Below are positions 2,354 to 62,211 of a stretch of DNA of 64,000 nucleotides, in pieces. Within the stretch, counting starts at the first letter, position 1; each line of letters opens with the position of its first letter. The stretch lies in the NCBI RefSeq assembly GCF_004010195.1, contig NC_057754.1:5381781-5445780 (forward strand). Reading direction: 5' to 3'. A model generated the notes under the pieces. It searched no databases and was not told where the DNA came from. It saw nothing but the letters and a program-made list of their open reading frames with translations. A program made the translations under genes and the position numbers. This stretch comes from Chiloscyllium plagiosum (lineage: Eukaryota).

Positions 2354-5300
2354 GTAACCCCTAAGGATTTCTATCTATTGAAGGTTTCAATGCCATTGAA
2401 TATGTTGTGAAATGGAACGAAGGGGTTTATCTGAGTGTGTACACACCTTTTCTTGCTGAGGGGTTTTTAACTCAACCAGCGGGTAGTGTTTGCAGGAGAT
2501 GGACCACAGATAAAGGTGTGCCTTTGTTTAGTCTGAAGGGCAAAGTGATTCCTGATAAAGGAGTGAAGTCTCAATGCTTATTTTTCGTCCTACATTACCT
2601 CATCTCATTTCGGTAAAACAAACAAAGACAGGACTCATACAATTAAAAGGTCCTTGGGTAAGGTTGTAGAACAGAGAGAGATTAGATTAGATTACATTAC
2701 AGTGTGGAAACAGGCCCTTCGGCCCAACAAGTCCACACCGACCCGCAACCCACCCATACCCCTACATTTACCCCTTACCTAACAAACGTGCAAACTCCAC
2801 ACAGTCAGTCGCCTGAGGCGGGAATTGAACCCGGGTCTCTGGCGCTGTGAGGCAGCAGTGCTGACCACTGCGCCACCATGCCGCCCACGATTTAGGGCTT
2901 CAGCTACATACTTTTCTGGTGTTTGCTTCACATGTGAACAGGCTAGTCAGGAAGGCATTTAGCACGCTTGCCTTCATTACTGAGGCCTTTGAGTATAGAA
3001 GTTGGGATGCAATATTGAGGATGGACAGGACATTGGTGAGGCCCCTTCTGGAATACTGTGTCCAGATCTGGTCACCCTTTTACAGGAAAGATATTATTGA
3101 AGTCTTAGGTGCATTAGTCAGAGGGAAATGGTCTGGGTGGGTAACTCTTCGGAGGGTTGGTGTGGACTTGTTGGGCTGAAGGGCCTGTTTCCACACTGTA
3201 GGTAATCTAATCTAAACTGGAGAGGGTTCAGAGAGCTTTACCGGGATGTTGCCGGGTACGGAGGGTTTGAGTCATAAGGAGAGGCTGGATAGGCTGGGAC
3301 TTTTTTCACTGGAGTATAGGAGGTTGCGGGGTGAACTTATTGAGATTAATAAAATCATGACAACTATAGATGAGTGACAAGTATCTTTTCCCTATGGTGG
3401 GGAGGGTTTTACGACCAGGGGGCCGCATTTTTAAGGTGAGAGGAGAAAGATTTTAAAAAGACCTAAGGGGAACTTTTTTTTGACACAGAGAGTAATTTGT
3501 GTGAGGTAAAGTTGCAACATTTAAAAAACATTTGTATAAGTACATGAATAGGGAAGGTATATGGGCCAGGAGCAGGCAGGTGGGACTAGTTTAGTTTGGG
3601 AATATGCTCGGCACGGACTGGTTGGGCCGAAGGGTCTGTTTTCATGCTGTATGGCTCTATGATTCAATGAGTGACAGCAAATGAACATACAAATAAGGAA
3701 CACTTGGAGGCCATTTGACCCCTTCAAGGTAACCTACCATTTAATAAGAACGCAGCGGATCTGGTTATAACCAAATTCATACTCCTATCTCCTCCTGATA
3801 AAATTCCACCCTCTTGCTTTCCGAGAATCGGTACATTCCTACCTTAAAAATATTCAGAGGTTCTGCTTCTACTGTCTTTGGATGAGAAGAGATGTGAAGG
3901 TGCATGATGAATCTGTGAGAAATTTCTTTACCTCCATGTGTAAAACATGACAGGGTTCAGAAAAGATTTACAAGGATAATGCCAAGGTTAGAGGGCTTGA
4001 GCTGTAGGGAGAGGCTGAATAGACTGGCACTGTTTTCCCTGGAGTGTTGGAGGCTGAGGGGTGACCTTATAGAGATTTACAGATAGGGTGAATAGGCAAA
4101 GTCTTTTCCCTGGGATGGGTGAGTCCGAAGCTAGACGGCATAGATTTAGGGTGAGAGGGGAAAGATTCTAAAGGGATAGAAGGGGCAACTTTTTCACGCA
4201 GAGGGTGGTGCATGTATGGAATGATCTGCCAGAGGAAGTGGTGGAAGCTGGTACAATGTCAACATTTAAAAGGCATCTGGATGGGTATATGAATAGCAAG
4301 GATTTAAAGGGATATGGGCCAAGTGCTGGCAAATGGGACTAGGTTAATTTAGAGTATCTGGTCAGCATGGACAAGTTGGACCGAAGGGTATATTTCCATG
4401 CTGTACAGTTCTGTGACTCTATCTCCGTCTTAAAAGGGCCTCTCCTTACTTTGAAACAGTGACTCCTGGTTATTGATCCTCCCATAGCGGACAACATCCT
4501 TGCCACATCTTCCTCATCAGGATCTTAAATGTTTCACTCAAAACACCTTTTATTCCTCTTAGGTCTGGCAAATGCAAGTCTGTCAAGTCTTTCCTCATAA
4601 GACAACTTGCTCGGTCAAGGTTAATAAACCTTTACTGGACATCTTCCAAAGCATCAACAATTCTTCCATTAGTCAGAGCTGAAAATGTGTTGCTGGAAAA
4701 GCGCAGCAGATCAGGCAGCATCCAGGGAACAGGAGAATCGACGTTTCGGGCATAAGCCCTTCTTCAGGAATGATGCCCGAAACGTCGATTCTCCTGCTCC
4801 CTGGATGCTGCCTGACCTGCTGCGCTTTTCCAGCAACACATTTTCAGCTCTGATCTCCAGCATCTGCAGACCTCACTTTCTCCTTCCGTTAGTCAGGTGA
4901 CCAATACTGTAAATAGATGGGGTCTTCCCCATATAAGTGAAACATGACCTCCTTATTTTTGTATTTCATTTCCCTTGTAATAAAATACTTGCATTCTATA
5001 AACTTTCCTAATTACTAGTACCTGCATTGCAGCCTTTTGTGATTCCCCTGCTCCTTAGAGCGCTGAAATCTCTTACATGCGTCTTTTTAGTCGCCTTGCT
5101 AAAATGGACACTTTCGCATTTTGTCACATTATTCTTTAGAACAAAGAAAATTTCCAGCCCAGGAACAGGCCCTTCGACCCTCCAAGCCTGAGCCAATCCA
5201 AACGTACTGTCTAAACCAGTCGGTCATTTCCTAAGCATCTGTATCCCTCTGCTCCCCACCTACTCATGCATCTGTCCAGACGCATCTTAAATGAATCCAC

Positions 5301-8300
5301 CGTGCCTGCCTCTACCACGTCTGCTGGCAACGCGTTCCAGACACCTACCACCCTCTGTGTGAAGTACTTGCCGCGTGTATCCCCCTTAAACTTTTCACCT
5401 CTCACCTTGAACGCGTGACCCCTCGTTATTGAACCCCTCACCATGGGAAAAAGCTTCTCTCTATCCACCCTGTCTATACCCTTCGTGGTTTTGTAAACCT
5501 CAATCAGGTCCCCCCTCAATCTCCTTTTTTCTATTGAAAATAAACCTAACCTACTCAACCTCTCTTCACAGCTAGCCCTTTCCATACCAGGCAACATCCT
5601 CGTTAACCTTCTCTGCACCCTCTCCAAAGCGTCCACACCCTTTTGGTAATGCGGCGACCAGAACTTTACACAGTATTCTAAATGCGGCCGAACCAAAGTC
5701 TTGTACAATTTTAACATGACTTGCCAACTCTTATACTCAATACCTCGTCCGATGAAGGCAAGCATACCATATGCCTTCTTGACCACTCTATCCACCTGTG
5801 CAGCAACCTTCAGGGTACAATGGACCTGCACTCCCAGATCTCTCTGCCCATCAACTTTGCCCAAGGCTCTTCCATTCATTGTATAATTCGCTCTAGAATT
5901 AGACTTGCCTAAATGCATCACCTCACATTTGTCTGGATTGGAAGCCATCTGCCACTTTTCCGCCCAACTCTCCAGTCTATGTATATCCTCCTGTATTCTC
6001 TGACAGTCCCTTATGCTTTCTGCCACTCCTCCAATCTTTGTGTCATCTGCAAACTTGCTGACCATACCAACAGTGCCCTCTTCTAAATCATTTATATATG
6101 TATATCACAAACAACAGTGGCCCCAATACTGATCTCTGTGGAACACCACTGGTCACCTTTCGCCATTTCGAGAAACTCCCTTCAACTACTACTCTCTGTC
6201 TCCTGTTGCTCAACCAGTTCCTTATCCACCTGCACGCCATGTGACTTCACTTTCTCCATTAGTCCACAATGGGGAACCTTATCAAACGTCTTACTAAAGT
6301 CCATGTTTATGAAATCAACAGCCCTTCCTTCATCTAACAACTTGGTCACTTCCTCGAAGAAATCTATCAAGTTGGTAAGGCATGATCTCCCCCTCACAAA
6401 ACCATGTTGCCCAACACCGATCAGCTCATTCCTTTCCAAATAGAAATAGATCCTATCTCTCAGTAACCTCTCCAGCAACTTCCCCACCACCGACGTCAGG
6501 CTCACTGGTGTGTAGTTACCCGGAGTATCCCTACTACCCTTTTTGTACAGGGGGGACAACATGAGCAACTTTCCAGTCCTCTAATTTTTGCCCCTCACTT
6601 ATAGAGTCATACAGCACGGAAACAGATCCTTCGGTCCAACCAGTCTATAATCCTAAACTAAACTAGTCCTACCTGCCTGCTCCCGGCCCATTCATGCACT
6701 TATCCAAACCTTTCCCATTCATGCACTTATCCAAACCTCTCTATAAACAGTGTGTGCACCACTTCCTCAGGAAGTTCACTCCACACGCGGACCACCCTCT
6801 GTGCAAAACAAAATTGCCCCTTGTGTCTTTTTTAAATCCCTCTCCTCTTACCCTAAAACTGTGCCCACTGTGTCTTGAAACCCCTTATCCTAAAGTAAAG
6901 ACAACTGCCCATTAACCCTATCTGTGTCCCTCATGGCTCAATGGTTAGCACTGCTGCCTCATGGCACCAGACACCCGGGTTCAATCCAAGCCTTGGGCAA
7001 TTGCCTGTGTGGAATTTGCACGTTCTCCCTGTGTCTAGGTGCTTGGTTTCCTCCCACAGTCTAATAATGCGCAGGTTAGGTGGATTCGCCATGGGAAATG
7101 CCATTCCAGGGATGGGGTAGCAGGGTGGGTCTGGATGGGATGCTCTGTGTGGACTCGATGGGCCAAACGGCCTACTTCCACACTGTAGGGTTTCTATAAG
7201 TGAGGTACAAATCTTAGATATAAAAGAGGAATTAAGAGAAAATTAATGGCATTACATTACAGGGTTTAAAGAATAAGTTAGAAATAAGACATAGTTACAG
7301 GATTGACATTACAGTCAGAACAACAAATTGCAAATAAACACTACAGTGCAGCAGCTCAACATGTGATGTGACCGCCCGCACTAGAGCCAGGTCCAGTAAT
7401 TGTCCCCGCTCCACTCCAAGCCTGCAGTCCGCTCCGCACCAACTCTCAGCTGTTCCAAGGTAAGTTCCAGGACTGCTTCCCCCTTGCTTCCCACTGTCCT
7501 GGGGCTGCTTCCCCGCCTCTATAACCCCCCCCCACCTCCACCGGTGCTCCGGGATTCGCCTCCGGGGCTCGCCAGCTCCTCCATTCCCCTGCCACAGAAG
7601 GGGGAAGGAACAGAAGAGAAAAGAAGAAAGAAAAAGAACGCTCAGAGCAGAGGACTACTTACTCTGCCACCAGCTGGCTTTCGATCTCGGGGAGCCCTTC
7701 CTGCTCATGATGTTGGATGGCGCATTGGGAATGCTGATGGTCACGCCGATTGGTTGTTGTCACGTGTACCAAGATACGGCGTGCTGTCCAGGTAAATCAC
7801 GTCACACAGACTGCATCGGGGTAGCAGAACAGAGTGCAGGACACGGTGTCACAGCCAAAGGGAGGTGCAGGGTCAGCGAGATCAGAACTAACATTCGGGA
7901 GGTCGATTCAGAAGTCTGATAACCTCGTGGGGAAGAAGCTGTTCTTGAATCTGTTAGTAAGTGTTTACAAACCCTTATCCATTCCGCCTGACGGAAAAGG
8001 TGGGAGGGATTATAACCGGGGTGGGAGGAGTCTTTGATGATGTCGGCAGTGGGAAGTGTGGATGGAGTCAGTGGATGGAAGGTTGGTTTGTGTGATAGAC
8101 TGGGCTGTATTCACAGCTCTCTGTAGTTTCTTAGAGTCCTGGGCAGAGCAGTTGCCGTACCAAGCTGTGATGCATCCTGAAAGGGTACTTTCTATGGTGC
8201 ATCTATAAAAATCAGTCAGAGTTCTTGTGGGCATGCCGAAGTTCCTTAGCCTCCTGAGGAAAGTAGAGGCGTCGGTGCTTGGTCAGTAATTTGATCTCCG

Positions 8301-23300: not shown

Positions 23301-26300
23301 GAATAGGTTGGGGCTGCTCCTTCGTCAGGTGAAGTGGTACATGACGGCCTCATAATGTTACGACTAGACCGTTAATCCAGGGAGGAAATGAGGACTGCAG
23401 ATGCTGGAGATCAGAGTCAAAAAGGTGTGGTGCTGGAAAAGCACAGCCAGTCAGCCAGCATTCAAGGAGCAGGAGAGTCGACGTTTCGGGCATACGCTCT
23501 TCATCAGGAATTCCTGATGAAGAGCTTACCCTCGAAATGTTGACTCCCGCTCCTCAGATGCTGCCTGAGTGGCTGTGCTTTTCCAGCACCACACTTTTTG
23601 ACTGTTAATCCAGAGATCCAGTAAATGGTTCCGAGGACCTGGGTTCAAATCCAGCCGTGGTCAACGGTTGAATTTAATTCAATAAAAGTGTGTGGAATCA
23701 GAGGGCAGTCAAGAATCAGCCATGTTGCTATGGTCTGGAGTCACACGTGGGCCAGGTAAGGATGGCAGTTTCCTTCCCTAAAGGACATTAGTGAACCAGA
23801 TGGGTTTTTACAGCAATTGGCAGTGGATTCACAGTCATCATTAGACTCTTAATTCCAGATTTTTTATTGAATTCAACGTGCACTATCTGCTGTGGTGGGA
23901 TTCAAACCCAGGTGCCCAGAACGTTACCTGGGTCTCAGAACTAACAGTCGAGCGATAATTCCACTCAGCCATTTCCTCTCCTGAGACAGGCTTCTCACTG
24001 AGAACGAGAATCAGAAGGTTTATTCACAAAGCAACACCCTTAATGGATTACAAATTAAAGATGCGACTAGGCAATCACATGGCAAGGTGTTACACAGATA
24101 TCAAAGGATCCCTACAGTGTGGAAACAGGTCATTTGGCCCAACAAGTCCACACTAAACCTTCGAAGACCATCCCACCCTATCCCTGCAACCCCAACACAT
24201 CCCATGGCTAATCCACCTAGACTGCACATTCCTTGGACACTATGGGATAATTTAGCATGGCCAATCCACCCTAACCTGCACATTCTGGCTATTGAGGGAG
24301 TGCAGTGTAGGTTCACGAGGTCAATTCCTGGAATGGTGGGACTATCTTATGTTGAAAGATTGGAGCGACTGGGCTTGTATACTCTTGAGTTTAGAAGACT
24401 GAGAGGGGATCTGATTGAGACATATAAGATTATTAAAGGATTGGACACTCTGGAGGCAGGAAACATGTTTCCGCTGATGGGTGAGTGCCGAACCAGAGGA
24501 CACAGCTTAAAAATAAGGGGTAGGCAATTTAGGACAGAGTCATGGAGAAACTTCTTCACCCAGAGAGTGGTGGGTGTGTGGAATGCTCTGCCCCAGAAGG
24601 CAGTGGAGGCCCAGTCTCTGGATTCGTTTAAGAAATAGTTGGACAGAGCTCTCAAGGATAGTGGAATCAAGGGTTATGGAGATAAGGCAGGAACAGGATA
24701 CTGATTAAGGATGATCAGCCATGATCATGATGAATGGTGGTGCAGGCTCGAAGGGCAGAATGGCCTACTCCTACACCTATTGTCTATTGTCTATCTTTGG
24801 ACTGCGGGAGGAAACCGGAGCACCCGGAGGAAACGCACACAGACACGGGGAGAACATGCAAACTTCACACAGACAGTCACCCGAGGCTGGAATTAAACCC
24901 AGGTTCCCGGTGCTGTGAGGCAGCAGTGCTAACCAATGAGCCACCGTGCTGCTCTCTTAAAGGTACATGCTTGCCTGCTCATAGACACACGCATCACAGT
25001 GTGGTACGGCAACGGCTCTGCCTAAGACTGCAAGAAACTACAAAGAGTTGTGAACATAGCCCAGTCTATCCTGAAAACCAGCCTCCCTTCCAGTGAATCT
25101 CTAGAGTCTTTTCCCGAGGTTGGGGGGCTTTCAAGACTAGGGGCATATATTTTTAAAGGTGAGAGGAGAAAAATTTCAGAAGGATATAAGAGGCAACTTG
25201 TTTACACAGCAGGTGGTTCATACATCGTATGAACTTCCTGAGGAAGTTGTGGATGTGGGTAGAGTTACACCGTTTAAAAGACATTTGGATAAGTACATGG
25301 ATAGGAAAGGGTTTGGAGGGATATGGACCAGGAGCAGGCAGGTGGGATTAGTTTATGGTCGGCATGGACTGGTTGGACCAAAGGGTCTGTTTCCATGACG
25401 TATAACTCTATTCCATGCATAGTGACTGGCATCAGCACGCTATCACAGCACTGACGTCCGATCCCAAAAGTCGCTGTTGCAAGCACATCGGAGGCAATTA
25501 TCAGTAAGGAAAATTAAAGGGAATGCTGATCCTTCTCTTTGCTGTTGTAGGTTTTCGACCAGTTTTGCCTATTACGGGTTGGCGATAGACCTGCAAGGAT
25601 TTGGAGTTGATATTTACCTCATCCAGCTGATTTTCGGAGCTGTAGACATCCCAGCGAAACTGCTTGCATTTCTCTTCATGAGCCTGATCGGAAGAAGGTT
25701 CACACAAGCCACTTCACTTATCCTGGCAGGGAGCTTTAACCTGGTGAACATCTTTGTCCCAAAAGGTAAGGGTTAATAGTCACAGAACTTGGTCAATTTT
25801 TACCCCAGTTGAGAAATGTTCCACCCCCAGAGGGATGTTCCACAGGTAAGATGTAAGAACTTACGATTGAAGATGCTATAGCAATGGCATGTTGATGAGT
25901 AAAAGGTCATTGGGCAGAGTCTACATGGTTTAGAGAAAGGACAATCATGTTTAGTGAACAATTTATTGAAGTTCTTAATGAAGTAATGTGCATTGTGCAT
26001 AATGGGGAATCAGTGGATTTATGTTTTTAGTTACTCATTAGTGGGATGTGGGTGTCACAGGTTGGGCCCGGCATTTCTTGCCCCTTGAGAAGGTGGTGTT
26101 GAGCTGCCTTCTTGAACTGCTGCAGTCCACCTGTTGTAGGTTGACCCACAATGCCCTTAGAGAGGGAATTCCAGAATTTTGACTCAGCGACAGTGAAGGA
26201 ATGGCTGATATATTTCTAATTCTGGATCAGTGGTGCTGGAAGAGCACAGCAATTCAGGCAGCATCCGAGGACAGGCATAATCGACGTTTCGGGCAAAAGC

Positions 26301-29300
26301 CCTTCATCAGGAATAAAGCTTTATTCCTGATGAAGGGCTTTTGCCCAAAACGTCGATTTTGCCTGTCCTCGGATGCTGCCTGAATTGCTGTGCTCTTCCA
26401 GCACCACTGATCCAGAATCTGGTTTCCAGCATCTGCAGTCATTGTTTTTACCTGATATATTTCTAAGTCAGACTGGTGAGTGGTTCAGAAAGGACTTACA
26501 AGGGGGTGGTGTTCCCATGTCTCTGCTGCCTTTATCCCTAGATGCTTATCCTTTAGATAATACCACATTTAAATTGCTGCAAGGTTATTGTTAAGGAGAC
26601 ACATTAAAGGTCATTGGAGAAATTAAAAGCTCATGGTGTCAGGGGTAACAAATTGATGCAGATGAAAGATTTTGGCAGACAGAAATCAGACAGGAGGAAG
26701 AAATGAGAGTTGGCATTGACTAATGAGTGGGGTGCCACAAGGATCAATGTTGGGCTCTCAACTTTTACAATGGGCATAAATAATTCGGATGAATGGACTG
26801 GAGATATGGTTGCCAAATTTACTGATGACACAGTCAAAGGGAGAGTATAAAATTGTGAAAAGGACATAAGGATATTGCAAAGAGATCGAAACAGATTAAA
26901 TGAATGGGAAAATGGAGTATAATGTGGGAAAACATGAAACTGCCCCTCTGAGAAAAATGACTTCACGAGGAAGCTTTCTGCACCATAGAAAGCATCCTAT
27001 CCAGATGCATCACAGCTTGGTTGGGGAACTGCTCTGTCCAAGATCACGAGAAACTACAAAAAGTTATGAACACAGCCCAATCCATCATGAAACGCCAGCA
27101 TTCCATCCATTGACTCCTGCTACATTTCCCAATGCCTCGGGAAGGCAGCCAACATCATCAAAGACCCTTCCCACCCCGGTTATAATCTCTTCCATCGGAC
27201 AGAATATACAAAGATTTGAGAACACGCACCAACAGTCAAGACCAGTTTCTTCCCCGCCGTTATCAGATTTATGAACAGACGTTTTGTATATTAGAGTTGA
27301 ACTTTCTCTGCAACTCCTCTGTATCTGTAACACTACATTTTGCATTCTGTTCTATTACCCCAATATACTTATGTAAGGTATGATTTCATAGAGTCATACA
27401 GCATGGAAAAAGACCCTTTGGCCCAACCAGTCCATGCAGACCATAATCCCAAATTAAACTAGTCCCACCTGCCTGCTCCTGGTCCATATCCCTCCAAAAC
27501 CTTTCCTACTCATGTACTTATCCAAATGGCTTTTAAATGTTGTAACTGTACCTGCATCCACCATATCCTCTGGGAGTTCATTCCACACACAAACAATTGC
27601 CCCTTGTGTCTTTTTAAAATCTTTCTCCCTCTCATCTTAAAGATATACCCTCTAGTCTTGAACTCCTGCACCTTAGGGAAAAGACACCTGCCATTCACCT
27701 TTTCTATACCCCTCATGATTTTGTAGACCTCTATCAGGTCACCCCTCAACCTACCACTCTCCAGTGAAAGAGGTCCCAGCCAATCCAGCCTCTCCCTATA
27801 ACTCAATCCCTCTATTCCCAGCAACGTCCTGGTAAGTCTCTTCTGAACTCTTTCCAATTTAGTAATCTCCTTCCTGTAACAGGGCGACCAGAACTGGGCA
27901 CAGTGCTCCAGAAGAGGCCTCACCAATGCTCTCTGCTTAGCACGCAAAACAAAACTTTTCACTGTATCTCAGTAGTTGCCAATAATAAATCAAATCAAAT
28001 TGAATAGATTGGTGAGAGATTGCAGCTCTAAGATTCACAAGCGATCCAGTTGCCCTAATGCGTGAACGTCAAAAGGCGACATGCAGGTACAGCAAGAATA
28101 TTAATAGAATGGAATTATGTATTGCGAGGGCAATTCAAGACAAAATAAGGGAGATTATGATTCAGTCAGTTTGGCCACTGGTGAGACCACGTCTGGAGTT
28201 CTATATTGATCTCCTTATTTAAGAAAGAATATAAATGCCTTGGAGGCAGTTCTTACAAGGCTTACTGGGCTAATCCCCTGGAATGGGTGGTTTACCTAAT
28301 GAGAAAAGGTTAGACAGGCTAGGCTGCTGCCCGCTGAGTCTAGAACAGCCAGAGGTGACTTGATTAAAGTGTAAGATACTGAGGAGTCCTGACAAAGTGG
28401 CTGTGAGGTGGCATGTTACCTTGTCTTGAAGAACCACCGTTTGGAATAGTCACCCAATTCTCACAGATTCTCTGGAAATCTCCTACTCGGTGGAAATGGA
28501 GCCTTTGAATATTTTGAGGCAGGGGTACTTAAATTCTTGTTTTTCTTTTATTTTGGTGAACCGAATCGACCTGTTCAAGGATATTATTGCACTCCTCTGG
28601 AGCAGGTGGGGACTTGAGTCCAGACCTCCCAGTCTGCGGGTAGAGACACTACTACTGTCCCACAAGAGGGCCCCCCATTAGATTTTTTTTAACCTATTTC
28701 TTTGAAACAACCCATTCAGAGATATCATTCCACACTTCTGGAGCAAGTGGGATTTGAACCTGGACCTCCCAGACTGGAGTAGGGATAGATTAGATTACTT
28801 TACATTACAGCGTGGAAACAGGCCCTTCGGCCCAACAAGTCCACACCGACCCGCCGAAGTGCAACCCACCCATTCCCCTACATTTACCCCTTACCTAACA
28901 CTACGGGCAATTTAGCACGGCCAATTCACCTGACCCTGCACATCTTTGGACACTACCGCTGTAGGGTAGGGGGGCCCCTCCTTTTGTTTTACTCAACCTA
29001 TTTTTCTAATCAACTTGTTCAGTGATGTTATTACACACCTCTGGAGCCAGTAAGACTTGAACCCCAGGCTTTGCAATCCAAGGGTAGGAACCCTACCTAC
29101 ATACCACAAGAGGGCGGCCTTCTTAGACTCTTGTTAAGCAAAGGAGTGAAATTAGAACAGGAGTACGAGAAATGTGGAGTAATCAGATCTCACTGAATGT
29201 TGGATCAAAGGCTGAGAGGCATGCTCTCACTCCTAACTTATATGATATTGTCTTCGTAGAAATACTGCAAACCTTTTATTAACCTTATCATCTGGCACTC

Positions 29301-32300
29301 TCGATAAACCGGGAAAAATTATATACCACAAATACCATGAATATTCTGTCCAATGATTATAGCTTTTCTAATTTATTTACCTGAATATAAATAATACTTG
29401 TTCTTCAATCAAATGGCCACATTGACAGTTGAGTCAACTTTGAGTTAATTTCTCCTCAAATACCACAATTAGATGATTAGATTATTTACAGTGTGGACAC
29501 AGGCCCTTCGGCCCAACAAGTCCACACCGACGCGCAACTCACCCAGACCCATTCCCCTATACCTAACACGACAAGCAATTTAGCATGGCCAATTCACCTA
29601 ACCTGCACATCTTTGGATTGGGTTGGGATATCTGGTCGGCATGGATGGGTTGGACTGACATGTCTGTTTCCATGCTGTACATCTCTATAACTCTATCTCT
29701 GAGCAGTCTGCCGAGGTGTGAGTGTGAAGGGTCCCTGAATCATAAAATTCCCACAGTGTGGAAGTAGGCCTTTCAGCCCATTGAACCCATACTGACCCTA
29801 TCCCTATAACCCTGCATTTCCCCTTAACTAACCCACTTAACCTGCACGGGCCTGGATGTTACAGGGCAATTTAGTATGGCCATCCCACCCTAACCTGCAC
29901 GCCTTTGGACTGTGGGAGGAAAATGGAGCATCTGGAGGAAACCCACGCAGACACAGGGAGAAAGTGCAAACCCCACACAGACAGTCACCCGAGGGTGGGA
30001 TAGAACCCTGGCCCCGTGAGGCAGCAGTGCGAGCCAGTAAGCCACCATTTTGCCGTTAAGTTTTATTTAAGGCAAAGCTGTAGTGATGTAAACTGTTACT
30101 AAAGTGATGTGTGTACCCCCTGAATTATATTTCTATTACTCAGCGTGTGTTCTTACATTGATTATGTGAACCTCTTGATTATCCGGAATATCCAATCAGC
30201 TGACGTATCCCTTTATCCCATAGCTGCCGATTAATAAAACGTTTGCTGTGCTTCTGTTTGTAACCAACTGGTAAATACTCCAGTGGAATTTCTGCCTGTG
30301 CAGCTCAACACATCACCTCAAAAGGTTGACGACTTTCATCCCACAGTCAATTTGTTCAAAATATTAGTGAGTAAACCTTGTGCTGTTCTGTTTTCCCTAC
30401 AGAGATGCAGTCCTTACGAACGTTATTCGCTGCCCTTGGGAAAGGGTGTCTATCCGCAGCCTTCAGCTGTTGCTATCTCTTTTCAGGTGAACTCTACCCT
30501 ACTGTGGTCAGGTGAGTACACACACACACATTTATTTCCTTCAGCTGCTGTGGTTCAGCAAGTTCATCTTCTGCCTTTACTAGAACAGTGAGTTGACGCT
30601 CTGCCGCAAACACAGCCCAAAACAGACCAGCCTTATCTCGGCTAATCCAGCAGTTGAGGTCACTTTGATCACCCTGGGTTAATGAACAGTAAAATATCCC
30701 AGCATGCTTGGGTTCTTTTTTTCTGCTCCCCAATCGCTGGGAAGTGTGCCACTGAGGTCATGTTTAGCGCACATTGATTGCCCAACAGTATCAGGCGAAT
30801 TTATCTGAGGTTTCTTCTCTCTTTGTACAGCAGCTCAATGGTTGGCGCTGCTGCCTCACGGCGCCAGGGACCCTGGGCCCGGTTCCACCCTCCAGTGATG
30901 CCTGTGTGCAGTTCTTCCCGTGTCTGAGTGGGATTCTGCCAAGTTTCCTCCCACAGTCCTAGGATGTTCAGGCTAGGGTGGATTGGACACACTAAATTGT
31001 CCTGTAATATCCAGGGATGTGTAGGTAAAGGTGGATCGTCAATGCTAAATTGTCCCATAGTGCCCAGGGATGTGCAGGTTAGGGTGGATTGGCCGTGCTA
31101 AATTGTCCCATAGTGCCCAGGGACATGCAGATGAGGGTGGATTGGCCATGGGAAACACAGGGTGACAGGGATAGGGTCGGGTGTGGGTCTGTGTGGGATG
31201 CTCTTCAGAATGTTGGTGCACACTCAACGGGCCGAACGGCCTGCTTCCGCATGGTAGGGATTCTATGATTGTACTACCACTTGGAGCAATGTTCACAAAA
31301 ACCTGGGGGTCGGCGGAAGAAAACAACGCAAGTGCGATCCCGCCACAATCTGGATTTGTACATGATCAGTCCTGAGCTGCCAGTTGCTGTGGGGTCCGTT
31401 TAGCTCATTTGGCTGGATGGTTGGTTTGTGAAAACATATGATGCCGACAGCATGGGTTCAATTCCTGTCACCAGCCTGAGGTTACCATGAAGGATTCCTC
31501 TTCTTGACCGCTTCTCCCTTGCCTGAGGTTGTGACCATCAGGTTAAACTCACTGCCAGTTGTCTCTAACGAAAGAGCAATGCTATGCTCTGGTGAACATG
31601 ACTTGACCAGTTGCTGTGGAATCCACCTCCTAGAGGACTTAGTGATCTCAATGAAGAGAGCAGAAAAAAATAATGAAGCATTTGCAACAGACAGTGCAGA
31701 ATGTTTTTAAGTAATGCATCAGGTTTGTTACAGTGAGATAGAATTGCAAAGGGAATACTTAGTGGGCTTTCTGTTGATAAGAGCCAGAGGTCACCATTGT
31801 TGATAGGAGATTGACCAGATTAAAGAAAGAATTCCCATTAAATAGCAATGTGTCACATCTTTAGGGAAAGCTAAAGCAACTCTTGTAGTAAAAACATTAC
31901 ATTGGACTGCACTCAAACAAGTTATCCAGGCAAACTTTGCAGCATCTGGCAAGGCTCCACATCAGAAAGGTGAATGCAGTTATGGACAGAAAAAAGATGT
32001 TTTCGCCTGTGACACATCCAGCTTTTCATCAAATAGGTGCTTTAACCTCCACTCATCCTAAATTCTGTGCTCATGCCCTTGCAGTAGGCTTAGCTCTAAC
32101 TCAGAAAAGACTGCGAGCAAAAAAGGCAACTTTGGACATGTGCCATGAAGGGTATTACAGTGAAAACAATACAAAGCATTTGCAGAATCATAGAATCCCG
32201 ACAGGGTGGAAGCAGGTCTTTTGGTCCATCAAGTCCACACTGACCCTCCGGCGAGCATCCCACCCAATCCTTCTTCCCCTGCATATCCCAAAGCTAATCC

Positions 32301-36944: not shown

Positions 36945-37092
36945 AAAAGTGAGGCCTGCAGATGCCGGAGATCAGAGTTGAGAGTGTGGTGCTGGAAAAT
37001 CACGGCTGGTCAGGCAGCATCCGAGGAGCAGGAGAATCGGCGTTTCAGGCAAAAGCCCTTCATTCCTGATGAGGGACTTTTGCCCAAAACGT
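36945..37092. mobile_element. Degenerate hammerhead element inserted in a CR1 fragment
   Basis: Family arm plus attcctgatgagggacttttgcccaaaacgtc. Degenerate duplicated flank caacact. Confidence 0.6.
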
Positions 37093-38972
37093 CAACACTG
37101 CCCATGGCCCTACCATTAGTTATGTAAGCCCTACCCTTATGTGTTGTACCAAAATGCAATACCTCGCATTTATCCAGATTGAACTCCATTTTTCGTCCCA
37201 TTGACCCATTTGATCAAAATCCCTTTGTAATCTTAGAAAACCATCTTCACTGACTACTATGCCACCAATTTTGGTGTTGTCTGCAAACTTACTAACTACA
37301 CCTTCTTGCCACAACTCACTCAATAATGCATTGACATACAGTAGCTCTCAGATGCACCAGATCACTAAGGTAGTAGCACAGATTTCTCAAAGCTTAAAAA
37401 AGAAATCCTCAAACGTCGTGCCAAAGATGGTCTCAATCCAGATTTCATAACTTTTCATTTATTTTCTCTGAAATGTCAGTGGTTGAGGGGGTGACCTTAT
37501 AGAGGTTTATAAAATCATGAGGGGACATGGATAGGGTGAATAGACAAGGTCCTTCACCCCAGGCTGGGGGACTCCAGAATTAGAGGGCATAGGTTTAGGG
37601 TGAGAAGGGAAAGATTTAAAAGGGACCTAAGGGGCAACTTTTTCACGCAGGGGGTGGTGCGTGTATGGAATGAGCTGCCAGAGGAAGTGGTGGAGGCTGG
37701 TACAATGACAACATTTAAAAGGCATCTGGATGGGTACCTGAGTAGGAAGGGTTTAGAGGGATATGGGCCAAATGCTGGCAAATGGGACTAGATAAATGTA
37801 GAATATCTGGTTGGAATAGACGAGTTGGACTGAAGGGTCTGTTTCCGTGCTATACATCTCTATGACTCTATTGTGCATCTCCAATGATTCCATTGTTAAA
37901 ATGGCATGTTGGCTCAGTGGTCAGCACTGCTGCCTCACAGCACCAGGGTCCCAGGTTCGATTCCAACCTCGGGTGACTGTGTGGAGTTTGCACTTTCTCC
38001 CCATGTCTGTGTGAGTTTCCTCCCACAGTCCAAAAATGTGCAGGTTAGGATGGATTGCCCATAGTGTTGGGTACATTAGACAGAGGGAAATGGGTCTGGG
38101 TAGGTTACTCTTCAGAGGGTTGGTGTGGACTTGTTGGGCTGAAGGGCCTGTTTCTACCCACATTAGGGAATCTAATGTAAATTGAACAGCACTGAACTGG
38201 GATCAGCCTTGGGTCCGTGCTAAATAACCTTGGCAGGGAGGCTAGTACACTTGGCCTTAGTGCCTTGGGTCTAGGAAGCCATAATGTGTAAAAATATCCT
38301 CCTTTTGTGAGGTGAAGATCTATCATTTATTGCCCATGGTCTTGGCAGAGGTGATCTATTCAGCTAACTGGAGACAGACATGCACTGCCTCTTCCAGTCA
38401 AAGCCCAATGAATCGAACATTAATTAGATTGTTCATTGAGGCCTGGCAGTGCCCAACCACTCACCAATGGCTGCTACCAGAATGATGCTCAGGAGAATTG
38501 TTTCTGGCGTGACCAAGTGGGCAAGACTGTCACCAGTCACCACCTTCCTCCTCCACCCTATGTCCGATCTCTCAATCAGGTACTGATCGCCAATGATTGA
38601 AGGACTCCCTCCCCTCTCCCCAGCCAATAGGCAGCCCATACTGTTCTACCTGGGCATGGTGACTTCCCCAATGCAACTGGGTAACCAACAGCGGATAAGC
38701 TTTGAGCGGGCCCAAACCTAATACTGGCACAGACGGGAAAGGGGTCAAAGTTCGGGTGTGACATTACACCATCTGTTTATGTGCCTTCCCACTTTGAAAG
38801 CTCCCACCTCTGGAAGCACAAGATTCCGTCCTGTGTGACATTGTTAAACAAGAGGGGGGAGATGACAGCCAAGCAATATTATTGCTGGAGGTTAACCCAG
38901 ATACATGTTCTGGGGACCCAGTTCAAATCCCGCCACGGCAGATGGTGGAATTTGAATTCAATGTTTTTAAAA

Positions 38973-39270
38973 ATTAGATTACTTACAGTGTGGAAACAGG
39001 CCCTTCGGCCCAACAAGTCCACACCGGCCCGCCGAAGAGCAACCCGCCCAGACCCATTCCCCTACACCTAACACTACGGGCAATTTAGCATGGCCAATTC
39101 ACCTGACCTGCACATTTTTGGATTGTGGGAGGAAACTGGAGCACCCGGAGGAAACCCCATGCAGACACGGGGAGAACGTGCAAACTCCACACAGACAGTC
39201 GCCTGAGGCGGGAATCAAACCCAGGTCTGTAGCGCTGTGAGGCAGCAGTGCTAACCACTGTGCCACCGTG
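38973..39270 (-). mobile_element. HE1/V-SINE-like tRNA-derived SINE, near full length
   Basis: Reverse complement has A box tggcacagtggttag, B box ggtttgattcc, core gtgtggagtttgcacgttctcc and a CR1-like tail ending taatctaat. Many other copies, e.g. 2681-2888(-), 6934-7198, 10087-10405, 22458-22727, 29737-30055(-), 32188-32510(-), 33293-33570(-), 37903-38175, 40012-40347(-), 49843-50170 and 60338-60620(-). Confidence 0.85.
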
Positions 39271-41172
39271 GTTTTTGCAAGTTTTTAAAAGCTGGTATTA
39301 CAAGTCTAATGAGGACCATGAATCCATTATCGATTGCCGGAAAACCCTATCTGGTTCACTAATGTCCTTTAGGGGAGGGAACCGCTGTCCTTACCTGGTG
39401 AGGGCCAACACGTGACTCCAGACCCACAGCGATGGGGTTGACTCTCGGGCAATCAGAGATGGGCAATAAATACTGGGCCTAGCCAGCAACACCCTCATCC
39501 AGTGAATGAATTAATAATGTGGCAATTACGTTGATGAATGTATCATTTAAATGGCCAACTGGAACCTTTAATGAAAGAATTCCCGGGAACGTAACGTGTA
39601 TCGGCTCCAGCCCTGAAGCTTATAACTTGTCAGTGGAATTTATCAATGCTGGCCCAGCTGAAATTCCATTTATTAAGGATGCTGATTTTGTTTATGAGTA
39701 GAACCAGTTTTCTTCTGTACTAATCAAACTGCACCATGTTAAATATCCTTTGCAAAGGTTTTAACAATAAAAATTACACTCTGAAATGCTCTCTGACATT
39801 CAAGTCATGTACAATTCTACCCTTGCGGTTATGCAAGCAAACGCGTGAAGAAACTTGAATCATGAAATCAATATGGAGAACGGTTGCAATCCTGTGACAG
39901 ATTTTATGACAGCAATCAGACAGCTCCTGCACACATGAACGACAGAGCGCTGAAGTGGGTCAGCAATCTGACACCTCACCAGTATCATGGACATCAAGCT
40001 GACATTACTCATAAAATCCCCATGGTGTGGAAACAGGCCATTCAGCCAATCGAGTCCACACCAATCTTCCAAAGAGAATCCCATCTAGATTCCCCGATAA
40101 CCCCACATTTCCCATGGCTAAACCACCTAGACTGCACATCCCTGGACACTATAGTTAAGTTCTCATGGCTAATCCGCCCTAACCTGTGCACCTTTGGACT
40201 GTGCAAGGAAACCAGAGCATCCGGAGGAAACCCCATGCAGACACGGGGAGAACGTATCAGCTCCACAGAAACGGTCACCTGAGGAATCGAACCCGGGTAC
40301 CTGATGCTGTAAGGCAGCAGTGCTAACCACTGAGCCACCAGGCCGCCCTACAAGTGAGGAGACTATCAATGACCAAAATTGGCGTGTTGCCGACTGCGTT
40401 ATTTTGGATGTTGGATGAGAAACTGTTTGGGAGTGCTTGAAATCAGGAAGCCACCCAATAGTAGAGGAAAGAGGGACTATAGCTGCACGTTGTTGCAGAC
40501 TTGGGCGATGAGATAGTCAGGATCTGTGTGTGGCTTGTTTTGACTCTTGTTTTCTTGAGACTGTCATAATAAATAAGGTGAGATGAAAAGGGCAGGAAGG
40601 GTTTTGACTGGAGGCCATGCATGACTGCCTGTCCATGGCTGTTTCAGATGAGGTCCTGACCTGGACAACTGACATGGCAATACACCTCCCCTCAAACTTG
40701 TACTGCTAATTAATCACCTTCTGCCAAGCAGTCAGTCATTGGCCATCCATACTTAAATCTCAATGCAGAGACAGGGAAAGCAGACCGCTCCCCATCGGAA
40801 CATTCCATGCCTCGGGCGACTGTCTACATGGAGTTTGCACCTTCTCCCCATGGGTCTCCTCAGGGTGCTCCGGCTAGCCAGCACATCTCTAGACACTGTG
40901 AGAAATTTAGCATGGCTCAACCTGCAGGTCTTTGGACTATGGGAGGAAACCCACATGGACACCGGGAGAACATGCAAACTCCACACAGATGGTCACCCAA
41001 GACTGGAATTGAACCCAGGTCCCTAGTGCTGTGAGGCAGCAGTGCTAACCACTGAGCCACCATGCATGCTCCTGACTGCAACCTAAGTGGAGTTTTGATA
41101 TGGGCTGGGAACCTACAAATACTGGACAGAGGAGTAGAGAAGATAGGGTAATTTAAGGAGTAATCATTTTAA

Positions 41173-42921: not shown

Positions 42922-42976
42922 GGATTAGTGGTACTGGAAGAGCACAGCAGTTCAGGCAGCATCCGAGGACCAGGAA

Positions 42977-43012
42977 AATCGACGTTTCGGGCAAAAGCCC
43001 TTCATCAGGAAT
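42977..43012 (-). ncRNA. Minimal hammerhead ribozyme motif, intact
   Basis: Reverse complement reads attc-CTGATGA-a-GGGC-tttt-GCCC-GAAA-c-GTC-gatt. Confidence 0.75.
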
Positions 43013-43104
43013 ACAGGCAGAGAGCCTGAAGGGTGGAAAGATAAGCGAGAGATTTTCCTGCTCCTCGGATGCTGCCTGAACTGCTGTGCTTTTCCAGCAC
43101 CACT

Positions 43105-43801
43105 NNNNNNNNNNNNNNNNNNNNNNNNNNNNNNNNNNNNNNNNNNNNNNNNNNNNNNNNNNNNNNNNNNNNNNNNNNNNNNNNNNNNNNNNNNNNNNNN
43201 NNNNNNNNNNNNNNNNNNNNNNNNNNNNNNNNNNNNNNNNNNNNNNNNNNNNNNNNNNNNNNNNNNNNNNNNNNNNNNNNNNNNNNNNNNNNNNNNNNNN
43301 NNNNNNNNNNNNNNNNNNNNNNNNNNNNNNNNNNNNNNNNNNNNNNNNNNNNNNNNNNNNNNNNNNNNNNNNNNNNNNNNNNNNNNNNNNNNNNNNNNNN
43401 NNNNNNNNNNNNNNNNNNNNNNNNNNNNNNNNNNNNNNNNNNNNNNNNNNNNNNNNNNNNNNNNNNNNNNNNNNNNNNNNNNNNNNNNNNNNNNNNNNNN
43501 NNNNNNNNNNNNNNNNNNNNNNNNNNNNNNNNNNNNNNNNNNNNNNNNNNNNNNNNNNNNNNNNNNNNNNNNNNNNNNNNNNNNNNNNNNNNNNNNNNNN
43601 NNNNNNNNNNNNNNNNNNNNNNNNNNNNNNNNNNNNNNNNNNNNNNNNNNNNNNNNNNNNNNNNNNNNNNNNNNNNNNNNNNNNNNNNNNNNNNNNNNNN
43701 NNNNNNNNNNNNNNNNNNNNNNNNNNNNNNNNNNNNNNNNNNNNNNNNNNNNNNNNNNNNNNNNNNNNNNNNNNNNNNNNNNNNNNNNNNNNNNNNNNNN
43801 N
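43105..43801. other. Assembly gap (697 N)
   Basis: Run of N. Confidence 1.
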
Positions 43802-43976
43802 CCATGACTTGTCCTATCTGCCTATCTTCTTTTCCACCTATCCACTCCACCCTCCTCCCGCCCCCGATCTATCACCTTCATCCCCTCCCCTACTCACCTA
43901 TTGTACTCTATGCTACTTTCTCCCCACCCCCACCCTCCTCTCACTTATCTCTCCACACTTCAGGCTCTCTGCCTGT

Positions 43977-44012
43977 ATTCCTGATGAAGGGCTTTTGCCC
44001 GAAACGTCGATT
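43977..44012 (+). ncRNA. Minimal type-I hammerhead ribozyme motif (Penelope-type), core intact
   Basis: attc-CTGATGA-a-GGGC-tttt-GCCC-GAAA-c-GTC-gatt. Predicted cleavage after C44008. Palindromic ACGT helix III. Confidence 0.75.
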
Positions 44013-46100
44013 TTACTGCTCCTCGGATGCTGCCTGAACTGCTGTGCTCTTCCAGCACCACTAATCCACTGCTGTGCTCTTCCAGCATCTGCAGTCATTG
44101 TTATTACCTAGACAGAGAGAGAAAGAGAGAGAGATAAAGAGGTAGAGATAGAGAGATAGATAGTTACAGATAGATAAAGATAGAGATTATGAGAGACAGA
44201 GGGAATGAACCAGCAAAGAGAGAGAGTGAGAGCAAGTGAAACAACAGAACGGATGCCATTTTCTGTCACTAAGCCACCCTTTATTTACATGTGCAAAGTA
44301 CATGCACTCTGACCGGCCAGCTCAGAGCCAGTCCCTAGAGTGAGGACACTGTCTGAGACTCCTGTTTATATCCCAGGGCTCCCTCATTCTAATCCCTACA
44401 GAAAGGAACGGGCCAAAGAATTCAACTAAATGGCGAAAGCTACACATTTTGGGAAGTATTTAAGTTTCTAAAGAATCGAGTAATTACAAGTAGAGCTGTT
44501 AAAGTTAAAATTGTCAAATTTGGTCCTTACCTTTGTTGTTGTCGAATAAAATTGCAACCTGACTGCTCGTGTGCATAGTCCTTTCCCTGAGAGACAGAGA
44601 GGCACCTGAGTAAATTCATCTCCTGGTCGAGTGAGTCCACACGGTCCTGGGGATACCCTGAAGCTAACAACAACAGACACATAAATCTCTACGCTTTTCC
44701 AAATCTGCACAGTTTGAAAAATCGGGAAAATGCTCTTGGTGATTTATCTTTCCCAGATCCAAAGAATGAACCGCCTTTCTCTATGTTGAACTTCTCCTAT
44801 TGTTTTGCAGTCACTTAATCTGCCAATGACCCCTTGGGTTGGCCCAGCAGTTATTGTTCGTTCCTCGTTGTTTTTGAGGAGCTGGACGTCAGCTGCCTCT
44901 TGAACCACTGTTGTGCTTGGGCCATAGATATATCCAAAACCAATATGCTGTCAGGAAGGGAACTCCAGGACTTTGACCCCATTGATAGCGGAGGAATGGT
45001 AATACAGTATCAAGTCAGGCTGGTATGTGGCTTGGAGTGGAACCTTGTAGGTGTTGGGGTGCACATGCGTTAGCTGTCTTTGTTCCACCGAGGTCATGTG
45101 TTTGAAACTCGCTGTCAAAGAAACCTCATTAAGGTCAACTGAACTGCATCTTGTAAATGGCCCACACAGCAGTAAATGCTCACTGGTGATGAAGAAAATT
45201 AGGGGGAAGAGGGTATTGAGATGGATAGAGTCATACAGCATGGACACAGGGCCTTCAGTCCAACCAGTCCATGCCGACCATAATCAGAAAATAAACTAGT
45301 CCCGCCTGCCTGCTCCTGGCCCATATCCCTCCAAACCCTTTCCTGTTCATGTCCTTATCCAAATGTCTTTTAAATGGTATAACTGTACCCACAATCCACC
45401 ACTTCCTCAGGAAGTTCAGTCCAGACATGACAGGCTCTCTGTGTAAAAAAAAAACTGACCCCCGTGTCTTTTTTAAATCTCTCTCTTCTCACCTTAGAAA
45501 TGTGCCCCCTAATTTTGAAATCCACCCCCCCCCCCCCCCCCCCCAGGAAAAGACACCTACCATTCAGCCCATCTATGCCCCTCATGATTTTATAAACATC
45601 CATAAGGTCACTCCCTCAACCTCATACATTCCAGTGAAAAAAGTCCCAGGCCTATCCACCCTCTCTTTATAACCCAAACCCTCCATTCCCAGCAATGTCC
45701 CGACAAATCTCTTCTGAACCCTCTCTAGATTAATAATATCCTTCCTATAACAGGGCAACCAGAACTGGACACAGTACTCCCGAAGAGGTCTCACTAACAT
45801 CCTGTACAACATCAACGTGACGTCGCAACCCCTACACTCGAAGGTCTGAGCAATAAAGGCGAGCGTGCATTTCCATAGCTGCATTTCCCCTACAGCTTCT
45901 TAGTTGCAATCTGTTGTAATAGTTGATTGATTTGACTTATTACTGCCACATGTGCCAAGATACAGAGAAAAATACTGATTTGCATGCTATTCAGACAAAT
46001 CATACCTGGCATAGGTACATCAGGGTGATAGACCCCTCAACCTCCTACCCTTCAGTGAAAAAAAATCCCAGCCTATCCAGCCTCTAGTTATATCTGTTAT

Positions 46101-46559: not shown

Positions 46560-47860
46560 CAAACAGGGGTTATCATGTCATCAGTGCTTCAGGAGGCTGG
46601 TCACAGCCCACATCAACTCCAGTCTCCCAGCCTGCCCCGAGCCCCTGCAATTTGCCCACCGACATAACAGGTCTGCAGTGGACACCATTCCCCCAGCCCG
46701 GCACTCATCCCTGGAACATCCAGACAACGAGGACACCTACGTCAGACTCCTGCTCATCCACCACAGCTCCACCTTCAACACCATCATCCCTTCCAGACTG
46801 ATCTGAGAACTCTGAGACCTAGGTCTTAGCTCCACTGTCTGCAACTGGATCCTCAGCTACCTGACCCAGAGACCGCAAACAGTGACGATAGACCACAGCA
46901 CCTCCTTTACAATCACCCTCAACACTGGGGACCCCCACGGATGCATTCTTTGCCCCCTACTGTATTCCCTGTACACCCATGACTGTGTTGCCAAACTCCA
47001 AACGAATGCTGTCTACAGGTTTGTTGACGATACCATCGTGGTAGGATGGATATCAAACAATGATGAGTTAGAATACAGAGACAGTGGGTTTGGTGTCGTG
47101 ATGCCATGATAACAATCCCTCTCTCAATTGAGACTAAAGAACCAATCAGAAAGAAGGGAGGAGAATGTGCCTCCATCTACATCAGTGGTGCTGAGGTTGA
47201 CAGGGTGAAAAGCATCAAGTTCCTCGGAGTGATGATAACTGACAATCTGTCCCGGACTTCCCAAGTAGATGCGACGGTGAAGAAGGCACAACCTTCCTCA
47301 GGCGGCTCAGGAGATTTGGCGTGTCCATAACGACTCTCACCAACTTTTACAAACGCTCCACTGAAAGTACACTGTCCAGATGCATCACGGCTTGATATAG
47401 CAACTGCTCTGCCCAGGACTGGAAGAAACTACTGAAGGTGGTGTGCACATCCCAGACCATCATGGAAGGCAACCTTCTATCCATGGCTCCACTTACACTT
47501 CTTGTTGCTGTGGAAAGGCTGCCAACACCATCAAAGACTCCTCCAACCGGCAATGCTCTCCTACAACCTCTTCCATGAGGCAGAAGTTTGAATACACACA
47601 CACCAACAGGTTCAAGAACAGCTTCTTCCCTGCCTTTATGAGACGGATGACTGGACCTCTCTCATTTCAAATAATGCTGGTCTTGCTAATGTTGATCTTG
47701 CCTAGCACATGCCCTTTGCGATGTAACTTATATGCCTCTGGCTAGTGCTTTTTCACTCGATGATCTGTATGTCCTTGCTTACTATGATCTGCCGATACTG
47801 CTTGCAGACAAAGCTTTTCACTGCACTTAGGTACATGTGATCAATCGAATCAAATCAAAG
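46560..47860 (+). mobile_element. Rex1/Babar-type LINE fragment (RT to 3' tail)
   Basis: [55 protein letters not shown] motifs and an (ATCAA)n tail. Related pieces at about 7755-8260(-), 18850-19198, 26960-28000 and 52460-52685. Confidence 0.8.
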
Positions 47861-47890: not shown

Positions 47891-48206
47891 AAGGGACTGT
47901 TTAATGAAACTTCCCAAATGCTAGTGACTAATATAACATTGAGCAATAATTCACCCAAACCCCCACCAACCACAACTCCATGGCCTTCGTTTCATAGTAT
48001 CTAGGTTTGTTAAACCAGGATGATTAAGTTAGCGAGATTAAGCAAGTTCTGTTATCACCAGCTTAATCATTACTTACATTTATGGATTAATGATCAGTTC
48101 AACCCAACAAGCATTATGTCTCTGTTACAGCCTCTCCGTCAGTGTCATGAGCTCTCCCTCAGCCACAATCCTTCTCCTTCAGTGCTGCCATCTCTGAGCT
48201 GCAGCC
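47891..48206 (+). promoter_or_regulatory. Gene B proximal promoter/5'UTR block with HNF1-like sites (48062-48074, 48086-48098)
   Basis: Homologous to 1643-1951. Sites CTTAATCATTACT and ATTAATGATCAGT. Confidence 0.6.
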
Positions 48207-48608
48207 ATGGGCTTCAATGATATCCTGGAGGATGTCGGAAGTATGGGCAAGTTCCAAATCATCCACATTTTGTTGCTGACATCCCCATCTCTGCTCCTGA
48301 CCATGCACAACCTGCTTCAGAACTTCCTGGCCGCTGTTCCTGATCATCACTGCAGGATCCCTTTGGAAGTGAATGACTCGAGGTACGCCAATGTCACGGG
48401 GAGGCTGCAGACGGAGGAACTTCTCCGGGTTTTCATCCCTCTGGACCAGGACCAACAGCCGGAGAAATGCCTGATGTACTCCTCACCTCAATGGCACCTT
48501 CTGGATCTCAACGGGACGCACGCAAACGTGACTGAGTACCACACGCAGAAGTGCACTGACGGGTGGACCTATGACAACTCTAAGTTCAAAGCCTCGACGG
48601 TTACAGAG
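48207..48608 (+). CDS. SLC22A6-like: Tandem paralog gene B exon 1 (MGFNDILEDVG...KASTVTE)
   Basis: 402 nt, colinear with gene A exon 1 (offset 46255), Kozak gcagccATGG, donor GAG|gtaacg. Confidence 0.93.
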
Positions 48609-48989
48609 GTAACGCCTGAGAATTTCTGTCTATTAAAGGTTCCAGTGACATTTATTGTGAAATGGAAGGAAAGTGAATAAATGGATGCGTGTCCCCCAAA
48701 ATAACCTCACACCTGTGAGGTGTTTATAAGTAAAACACCCATGCATATGTGCACATCAACCCAGTGTCCTCAAAATTTCCCAAAGGGTAAAGGTGTGGCA
48801 TTAAGGTATAACGGTTCTACGCTCCTCTTCATGCCTAATCCGCTAATTCCAATGGGTCAAAGCAAAGGCATCTGAACAACCCTGTTACTGTCAGCCAAGG
48901 GCTCAGCTCATAGCATCATTGAGCATGGAAATAGACTCTCAGTCCGAGTGGACCCCATTTACCTCTCCACCCCTGAGGATCCCAGCCTC

Positions 48990-62175: not shown

Positions 62176-62211
62176 ATTCCTGATGAAGAGCGTATGCTCG
62201 AAACATCGACT
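62176..62211 (+). ncRNA. Minimal hammerhead ribozyme motif (compensatory stem II variant)
   Basis: attc-CTGATGA-a-GAGC-gtat-GCTC-GAAA-c-ATC-gact. A G-C to A-U covariation in stem II relative to other copies. Confidence 0.62.

Follow-up and report, generated by a model that had tools for sequence, protein, structure and literature searches.

A near-perfect palindrome with two hammerhead motifs in an SLC22A6/OAT1-like intron of Chiloscyllium plagiosum, a probable truncated Penelope-like insertion

The 64,000-nucleotide stretch of Chiloscyllium plagiosum DNA considered here (contig NC_057754.1 of assembly GCF_004010195.1; hereafter the window) contains, in an intron between two exons of a gene resembling SLC22A6/OAT1, an insertion made of two head-to-head arms of 100 nt and a short tail on one side only. 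The insertion interrupts an older repeat and is bounded by a target-site duplication (TSD), and each arm carries a hammerhead ribozyme motif. The features of the locus, in positions of the window, are the following.

25551-25765, + strand: host-gene exon upstream of the insertion, SLC22A6/OAT1-like (match to OAT1 residues 347-417, E 1.6e-22)
26060-26545, - strand: host repeat, older and in high copy number, into which the element inserted (paralogues at 1201-1413, 51586-51792 and 53573-53785)
26205-26219, + strand: left TSD, 15 bp, 80% A+T, single copy in all three host-repeat paralogues; its last base, 26219, also belongs to the left arm
26219-26318, - strand: tail-less arm, family positions 1-100, read on the - strand
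26283-26310, - strand: minimal hammerhead, antisense to the host gene, its core intact (CUGAUGA, an added A, stem II of 4 bp, GAA, ACGUC)
26315-26322, no strand: centre of the palindrome, zero loop, both arms stopping at the same family base
26319-26418, + strand: tail-bearing arm, family positions 1-100, in host sense
26327-26354, + strand: minimal hammerhead in host sense, with G12>A at 26347, a CpG-type change
26419-26453, + strand: one-sided tail of 35 nt, reaching the longer of the family's two 3' ends and sharing its final 2 nt with the right TSD
26452-26466, + strand: right TSD, an exact copy of the left one
30403-30511, + strand: downstream exon of the SLC22A6/OAT1-like host gene, with the ELYPT motif; closes intron 25766-30402

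Palindrome, target site and hammerhead motifs

The two arms are reverse complements at 98 of 100 positions, the mismatched pairs being 26290/26347 and 26278/26359, and they meet with no spacer, which confirms the near-perfect spacerless palindrome described in a first-pass annotation of this DNA. They stop at the same family base, without overlap, at 26318/26319; beyond this base, where loose ends were seen behind 26318, longer copies run on into an upstream body. The tail is one-sided, as had been annotated, and its length is corrected from 33 to 35 nt: paralogous family contigs of three public DNA runs (X3, X4 and X12) diverge behind 26453 (181, 132 and 203 contigs, respectively; agreement 0.34), and therefore the element ends there, sharing 2 nt with the TSD, while another 93 paralogous contigs of run X12 diverge behind 26452. 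The flanking exons, which belong to those host-gene exons that could be located in the window (only some were), likewise bear out the annotated intronic position; the number 7 given to this intron rests on the exon structure of human SLC22A6.

The annotated perfect TSD was confirmed as well. The 15-mer CTGATATATTTCTAA is exact on both sides, and its score was equalled by 1 of 1000 random flank pairs in the TSD scan. When the element and one 15-mer are removed, the site becomes collinear with all three uninterrupted paralogues of the host repeat (159/195, 158/197 and 143/193 positions identical), each of which holds the 15-mer once and is thus a paralogous empty site, and both TSD copies carry two T's that are absent from all three paralogues. 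The 15-bp TSD is genuine. As for the interrupted repeat itself, we take it to resemble the 3' end of a long interspersed element (LINE), a class that no tool confirmed, and a BLASTP comparison with a piece of CR1 ORF2 gave no match.

Both hammerhead motifs lack a helix III loop, carry one additional base ahead of stem II, have a helix I that is short, and fit the description of "minimal" hammerheads in PMC4209133. Such minimal hammerheads occur in the terminal repeats of Penelope-like elements (PLEs), where they are thought to act as same-strand dimers (PMC4209133). The - strand motif forms only three of four standard pairs in helix I, and the + strand motif reads AAA instead of GAA at positions 12-14, a change that recurs in the arms at 581-647 and 37062-37096. 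Hammerhead G12 is catalytic. The motifs lie on opposite strands, and therefore one hammerhead is present per transcript; the "two back-to-back hammerheads" of the first-pass annotation stand as two motifs and are overstated as a pair of ribozymes, since each RNA carries one and the host-sense one is altered at G12. An Rfam scan of the whole 64 kb gave no match at the gathering score, and its 17 sub-threshold matches were all to generic hairpins, including microRNA families, and none to a hammerhead model. The full hairpin has a computed folding energy of about -204 kcal/mol on either strand (z = -25 on the + and -27 on the - strand; 0/200 shuffles as stable on either), and within this fold the pair probability of stem II is 0.000 on both strands, in agreement with the proposal that the hairpin masks the ribozyme. 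The copy would thus probably have no working ribozyme in cis, to judge from the modelled fold. We also considered the ATG inside the hammerhead core as the start of an open reading frame (ORF) and rejected it because a stop follows after 17 codons; no conserved ORF start was found.

A family of related copies and its assignment to Penelope-like elements

A BLAST search of one arm against the window returned 12 family loci, 7 inverted and 5 with a single arm. The hammerhead-bearing end is common to all of them, and their 3' ends fall at either of two termini, so that some have a tail of 30-35 nt and others none. Five of the 12 have TSDs of 13-15 bp that exceed the null (one of them in a microsatellite), and two have marginal TSDs of 7 and 10 bp, at 2.4% of the null; for the copy at 23385 the boundary was shifted by 8 nt after inspection, which changed its score from 8 to 11. 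Longer copies extend upstream into a pyrimidine-rich body. The family is also abundant in public DNA runs, where 37,000-41,000 contigs per run fall on a 1.4-kb stretch and the summed depth over the element is 0.9-4.3 million, a value that is not a copy number, against about 13 on unique flanks; the contigs show an AT-rich flank consensus behind 26453. Literature searches, sharks included, found no description of this family.

We assign the element to the PLEs with high confidence, and the copy itself is very probably a dead-on-arrival, 5'-truncated insertion of the hammerhead-bearing end (pseudo-long terminal repeat, pLTR) of an endonuclease-positive (EN+) PLE, made by target-primed reverse transcription. 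As hallmarks, PLE insertions are heavily 5'-truncated, adjoin an inverted copy that is itself 5'-truncated, and have a tail of 30-40 bp on one side and a pLTR hammerhead (PMC8557442), and inverted pLTRs with a 31-bp tail, TSDs of 8-10 bp and junction palindromes have been described, with self-priming proposed as their origin (PMC3846280). Four of the six features that we compared with EN+ PLE insertions are present here, namely a minimal hammerhead, an inverted copy, a one-sided tail with two 3' termini and a variable AT-rich TSD. A direct, partial tandem of pLTRs is absent at 26219-26453 and is suggested at 42922-44110, where a 697-base gap breaks it. The TSD, the single-copy target and the two fixed family ends support the view, already taken at first pass, that this is a retro-insertion. 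The locus is one more case of the published PLE pattern of inverted pLTR plus tail, common in this genome and not unusual.

Several results weigh against this reading. The TSD scan found none at 5 of the 12 family loci, and one strong TSD lies within a microsatellite; TSDs of 10-15 bp (15 bp at this locus) are also longer than the 8-10 bp given for rotifer PLEs (PMC3846280). Arms of the same copy are clearly closer to each other than to those of other copies in only three of the seven inverted copies, and the loci 23385 and 62176 share the centre GGAATTCC, as a palindromic master could also give. No displayed contig of the public runs bridges the locus. Pfam scans of 161 window ORFs of at least 80 aa, which left out ORFs containing N and the satellite at 57.5-59.7 kb, gave no GIY-YIG match and three RVT_1 matches away from any arm; a search for longer proteins and three scans of metagenome and viral contigs gave no PLE enzyme, and neither the ORFs of the 64-kb window nor the contig scans yielded a reverse transcriptase (RT) or GIY-YIG gene linked to the family. 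RT fragments do occur in the window at 5214-6580 (-), 63097-63717 (-) and 46816-47106 (+), none next to an arm and none of PLE type, and we take them to be LINE, CR1-like and RTE-like; the translations of two RT matches and of one unlabelled ORF have the same look.

The first-pass annotation called the insertion young, and relative to its siblings it is. The arms diverge at two of 100 sites, one of them CpG-type, and the TSD is unmutated; arm identity in sibling inverted copies is 79/82 and 79/99. Both arms carry G at 26409, a base that marks a subfamily: the A allele of the family accounts for 56% and 62% of the depth in two runs from organism A and for 96% in organism B, whose flanks differ from the window at 11/517 and 22/445 bases. 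This suggests, indirectly, that the G subfamily spread mainly after the two organisms separated, with no polymorphism implied.

A long sibling at 42922-44110 is inverted and apparently partially tandem. Its TSD, of 14 bp, lies in a GATA/GA microsatellite, and the 697-base assembly gap within it may hide the end of the parent ORF. In the upstream body of a longer copy, at 43940-43972, a branch-point-like CTCAC and a pyrimidine tract precede a CAG/G that ends 9 nt before family position 1, and a second subfamily in the public-run contigs carries the same CAG/G. It is possible that this is a conserved 3' splice site; the intron of Drosophila virilis Penelope ends at helix I (PMC4209133).

Origin of the inverted half

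Within the palindrome the two arms are 98/100 alike, compared with 0.90 for the best other copy in the window, and they share variants not seen in other window copies. No second window copy has the centre of 26315-26322. Centres vary among the seven inverted copies, with loops of 0, 0, 5, 19 and 70 nt in the five that were cleanly resolved (all except 46117 and 581, where the script did not resolve the centre), and paralogous contigs of the public runs contain 422 different joints, of which 15 were displayed. These observations support the earlier claim that the inverted half was made at integration. Four siblings are asymmetric (4687, 36950 and 42922 were resolved by script and 46117 by eye), and in each of them the loop comes from the tail-less arm, which extends further 5' than the other; at n = 4 (one-sided p ~0.06) this is no more than a lead. 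In two copies the arms are equal. Joints of the paralogous contigs were excluded from this count because the palindromic reference blurs left and right and short contigs bias the unambiguous ones. A longer tail-less arm is what fold-back of a tail-less cDNA predicts, and the opposite of what fold-back on the tail-bearing cDNA predicts. Across the window, 14 of 19 arms end at family positions 1-24, although detection favours long arms.

Taken together, these patterns could be produced as follows. A PLE enzyme would make two nicks in AT-rich DNA, one per strand and about 15 bp apart; one of them would prime cDNA synthesis at the short start site, family position 100, and the other at the long site, family position 135, yielding the tail. 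Both cDNAs would be made from one RNA species, pass through its uncleaved hammerhead and end at the same base; they would then be joined head to head, by a blunt join or a sealed hairpin at this locus and, in sibling copies, by fold-back of the tail-less cDNA, before gap filling creates the TSD. A self-primed cDNA can fold back only around a loop with some bases paired and, for steric reasons, not with zero loop and both arms ending at one base; therefore a blunt join or sealed hairpin fits the zero-loop copy better. Thus, of the earlier proposal of fold-back or template switching, the origin at integration holds, while for the zero-loop centre the joining of cDNA ends fits better than simple fold-back. 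We hold the exact joining route tentatively, at slightly less than even confidence. It is tempting to speculate further that the stumps of 100-135 nt are run-off products and not random truncations, with internal RT starts at the two tail sites, an end or stall at the 5' edge of the hammerhead, and a fixed rule of inversion by which the tail-less cDNA folds back or reaches further. We regard this extension as rather unlikely; a fixed rule for the tail-less arm was not seen in the PLE literature passages.

A different route to the same PLE insertion, which concerns the joining step and leaves the assignment untouched, would be self-priming on one strand, with the zero-loop palindrome as the primary product and the asymmetric centres as later tip deletions. 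Perfect palindromes do undergo tip deletion, and the most similar arms and the perfect centre are found in the same copy. Self-priming has, moreover, been proposed for PLEs (PMC3846280). However, random deletion at the tip predicts no bias, yet the tail-less arm is the longer one in each of the four asymmetric copies, and the old copy at 23385 is still symmetric. We consider this route unlikely but a credible competitor.

Alternatively, the inversion could have been inherited from a palindromic master resembling a short interspersed element, whose hairpin and tail were transcribed and reinserted whole. The two loci with one common centre would suit such a master, as would paralogous joints with a summed depth near 1000-1500, compared with about 13 for unique DNA. 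Against it, the centres differ in most window copies and none other in the window has the present one, both arms carry variants unseen in the other window copies, and a 100-bp duplex would be a poor RT template. We judge inheritance from a master to be very improbable.

The remaining alternatives deny a retro-insertion or the palindrome itself, and both are hardly credible. A palindrome of about 200 bp with high copy number and a TSD could be a cut-and-paste miniature inverted-repeat transposable element (MITE) with very long terminal inverted repeats, and a palindromic DNA transposon of about 200 bp is known from frog (PMC5625713), but the tail extends beyond the inverted repeat at just one end, TSDs range from 10 to 15 bp, 5 of the 12 copies are single-armed, longer copies enter the upstream body and the element contains a hammerhead core. 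A MITE is largely refuted by the asymmetry of the ends and the variation in TSD length; the first-pass annotation had argued against one from the long TSD. A fold-back chimera of the assembly might be suspected from the assembly gap in the sibling inverted copy and from the lack of a displayed spanning contig, but the arms differ at two sites, the asymmetric tail and both ends match family-wide termini, the exact TSD is duplicated together with two bases unlike all three paralogues, and six sibling loci have the same design. Flank contigs in runs X4 and X12 both end at 26456 because of the high-copy host repeat, and no joint that skips the element is among the 15 of 422 joints displayed.

Further copies and joints show individual peculiarities. 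At 43051, a sense arm starts exactly at the first base behind the hammerhead cut site (family position 37), the only one of 19 arms to do so, possibly by chance or possibly as a copy of cleaved RNA. At 581-807, two head-to-head arms enclose about 60 nt of unrelated DNA that is repeat-like and was possibly captured between them, and no TSD was found. The segments 23498-23524 and 62165-62190 belong to two copies of one older subfamily with the common centre given above, and in the latter copy the inverted arm is reduced to about 7 nt. Joints from 26309/26311 to 26407, seen in paralogous contigs of organism A and not of organism B, jump between the core CTGAT and the CTGAT made by the subfamily G at 26409, seemingly a microhomology deletion specific to that subfamily.

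Consequences, neighbourhood and comparison with known systems

This copy codes for nothing, and a 100-bp hairpin in the host pre-mRNA is the one effect that it is likely to have. It is plausible that this duplex would be a substrate of ADAR; processing of the hairpin by Dicer and cruciform extrusion of the DNA are plausible as well. Lizard Penelope and a palindromic frog Harbinger repeat are heavily edited, and hyper-editing occurs in elephant shark (PMC5625713); the palindromic ADAR-substrate repeats described there resemble the present element in being self-folding repeats of about 200 nt in pre-mRNA. With many near-perfect hairpins of 100 bp in its introns, a genome would place a heavy load on ADAR, consistent with the hyper-editing of lizard Penelope.

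In itself, the locus is a clean example of a known PLE insertion pattern and has little weight alone. The inverted-repeat step of PLE transposition, however, is called undefined in passages of the PLE literature. If the reading of run-off products with a longer tail-less arm were true, the genome would be a natural read-out of the inversion step in very many copies, and the junction statistics of this abundant family could separate self-priming, nuclease resolution and two-nick priming.

Three observations concern the surroundings of the insertion. Two long inverted repeat pairs (127 nt at 88% and 59 nt at 90%) lie at 25229-25411 and 27388-27581, about 2 kb apart around the upstream exon, and could pair in the pre-mRNA, with editing or circularisation of the exon as conceivable outcomes. 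Near-identical first-exon peptides of two SLC22 genes are encoded at 48198-48677 and 1943-2407; a tandem paralogue starts at about 48.2 kb. At 57670-59530, a unit of about 23 nt is repeated in tandem.

Among known systems, non-LTR retrozymes (bioRxiv 10.64898/2026.07.22.740005) are likewise non-coding and PLE-related and carry a type I hammerhead, but they are head-to-tail tandems with same-strand hammerheads, in contrast to the head-to-head arrangement with one hammerhead per strand found here. We therefore rejected a retrozyme, as no head-to-tail tandem units with same-strand hammerheads are present.

The motifs themselves agree with metazoan PLE minimal hammerheads (PMC4209133) in their core, the extra base between 9 and 10.1, the G10.1-C11.1 pair, the palindromic 15.2-16.2, the helix III without loop and the short helix I. 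Stem II measures 4 bp here, compared with 7-8 bp in Schistosoma (PMC4209133). Nearby motifs on opposite strands have also been noted in Schistosoma, with a spacing of ~100-700 bp in that source (PMC4209133) against 16 nt here, where one of the two carries G12>A.

EN+ PLE insertions (PMC8557442; PMC3846280) share with this locus the head-to-head inverted and 5'-truncated copy, the junction palindrome, the one-sided tail of 30-40 nt, the TSD, the AT-rich target and the pLTR hammerhead; unlike them, the present copy has no ORF (the stumps measure 100 and 135 nt) and a zero-loop centre, and the parent ORF was not found. A mechanistic parallel is Poseidon of Anolis (PAc; PMC11167929), whose protein, acting on AT-rich DNA, cleaves and extends each of the two strands and uses two internal start sites that bracket the tail on an uncleaved RNA template. 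The PAc ORF starts at stem II, whereas the core ATG of the present family soon meets a stop, and the inversion is left unexplained in the excerpts of that work (PMC11167929). In both systems, two fixed ends bracket the tail downstream of an uncleaved hammerhead; in the present family they lie 64 and 99 nt past the cut site, and the main PAc start lies about 85-92 nt past its own (figures of PMC11167929).

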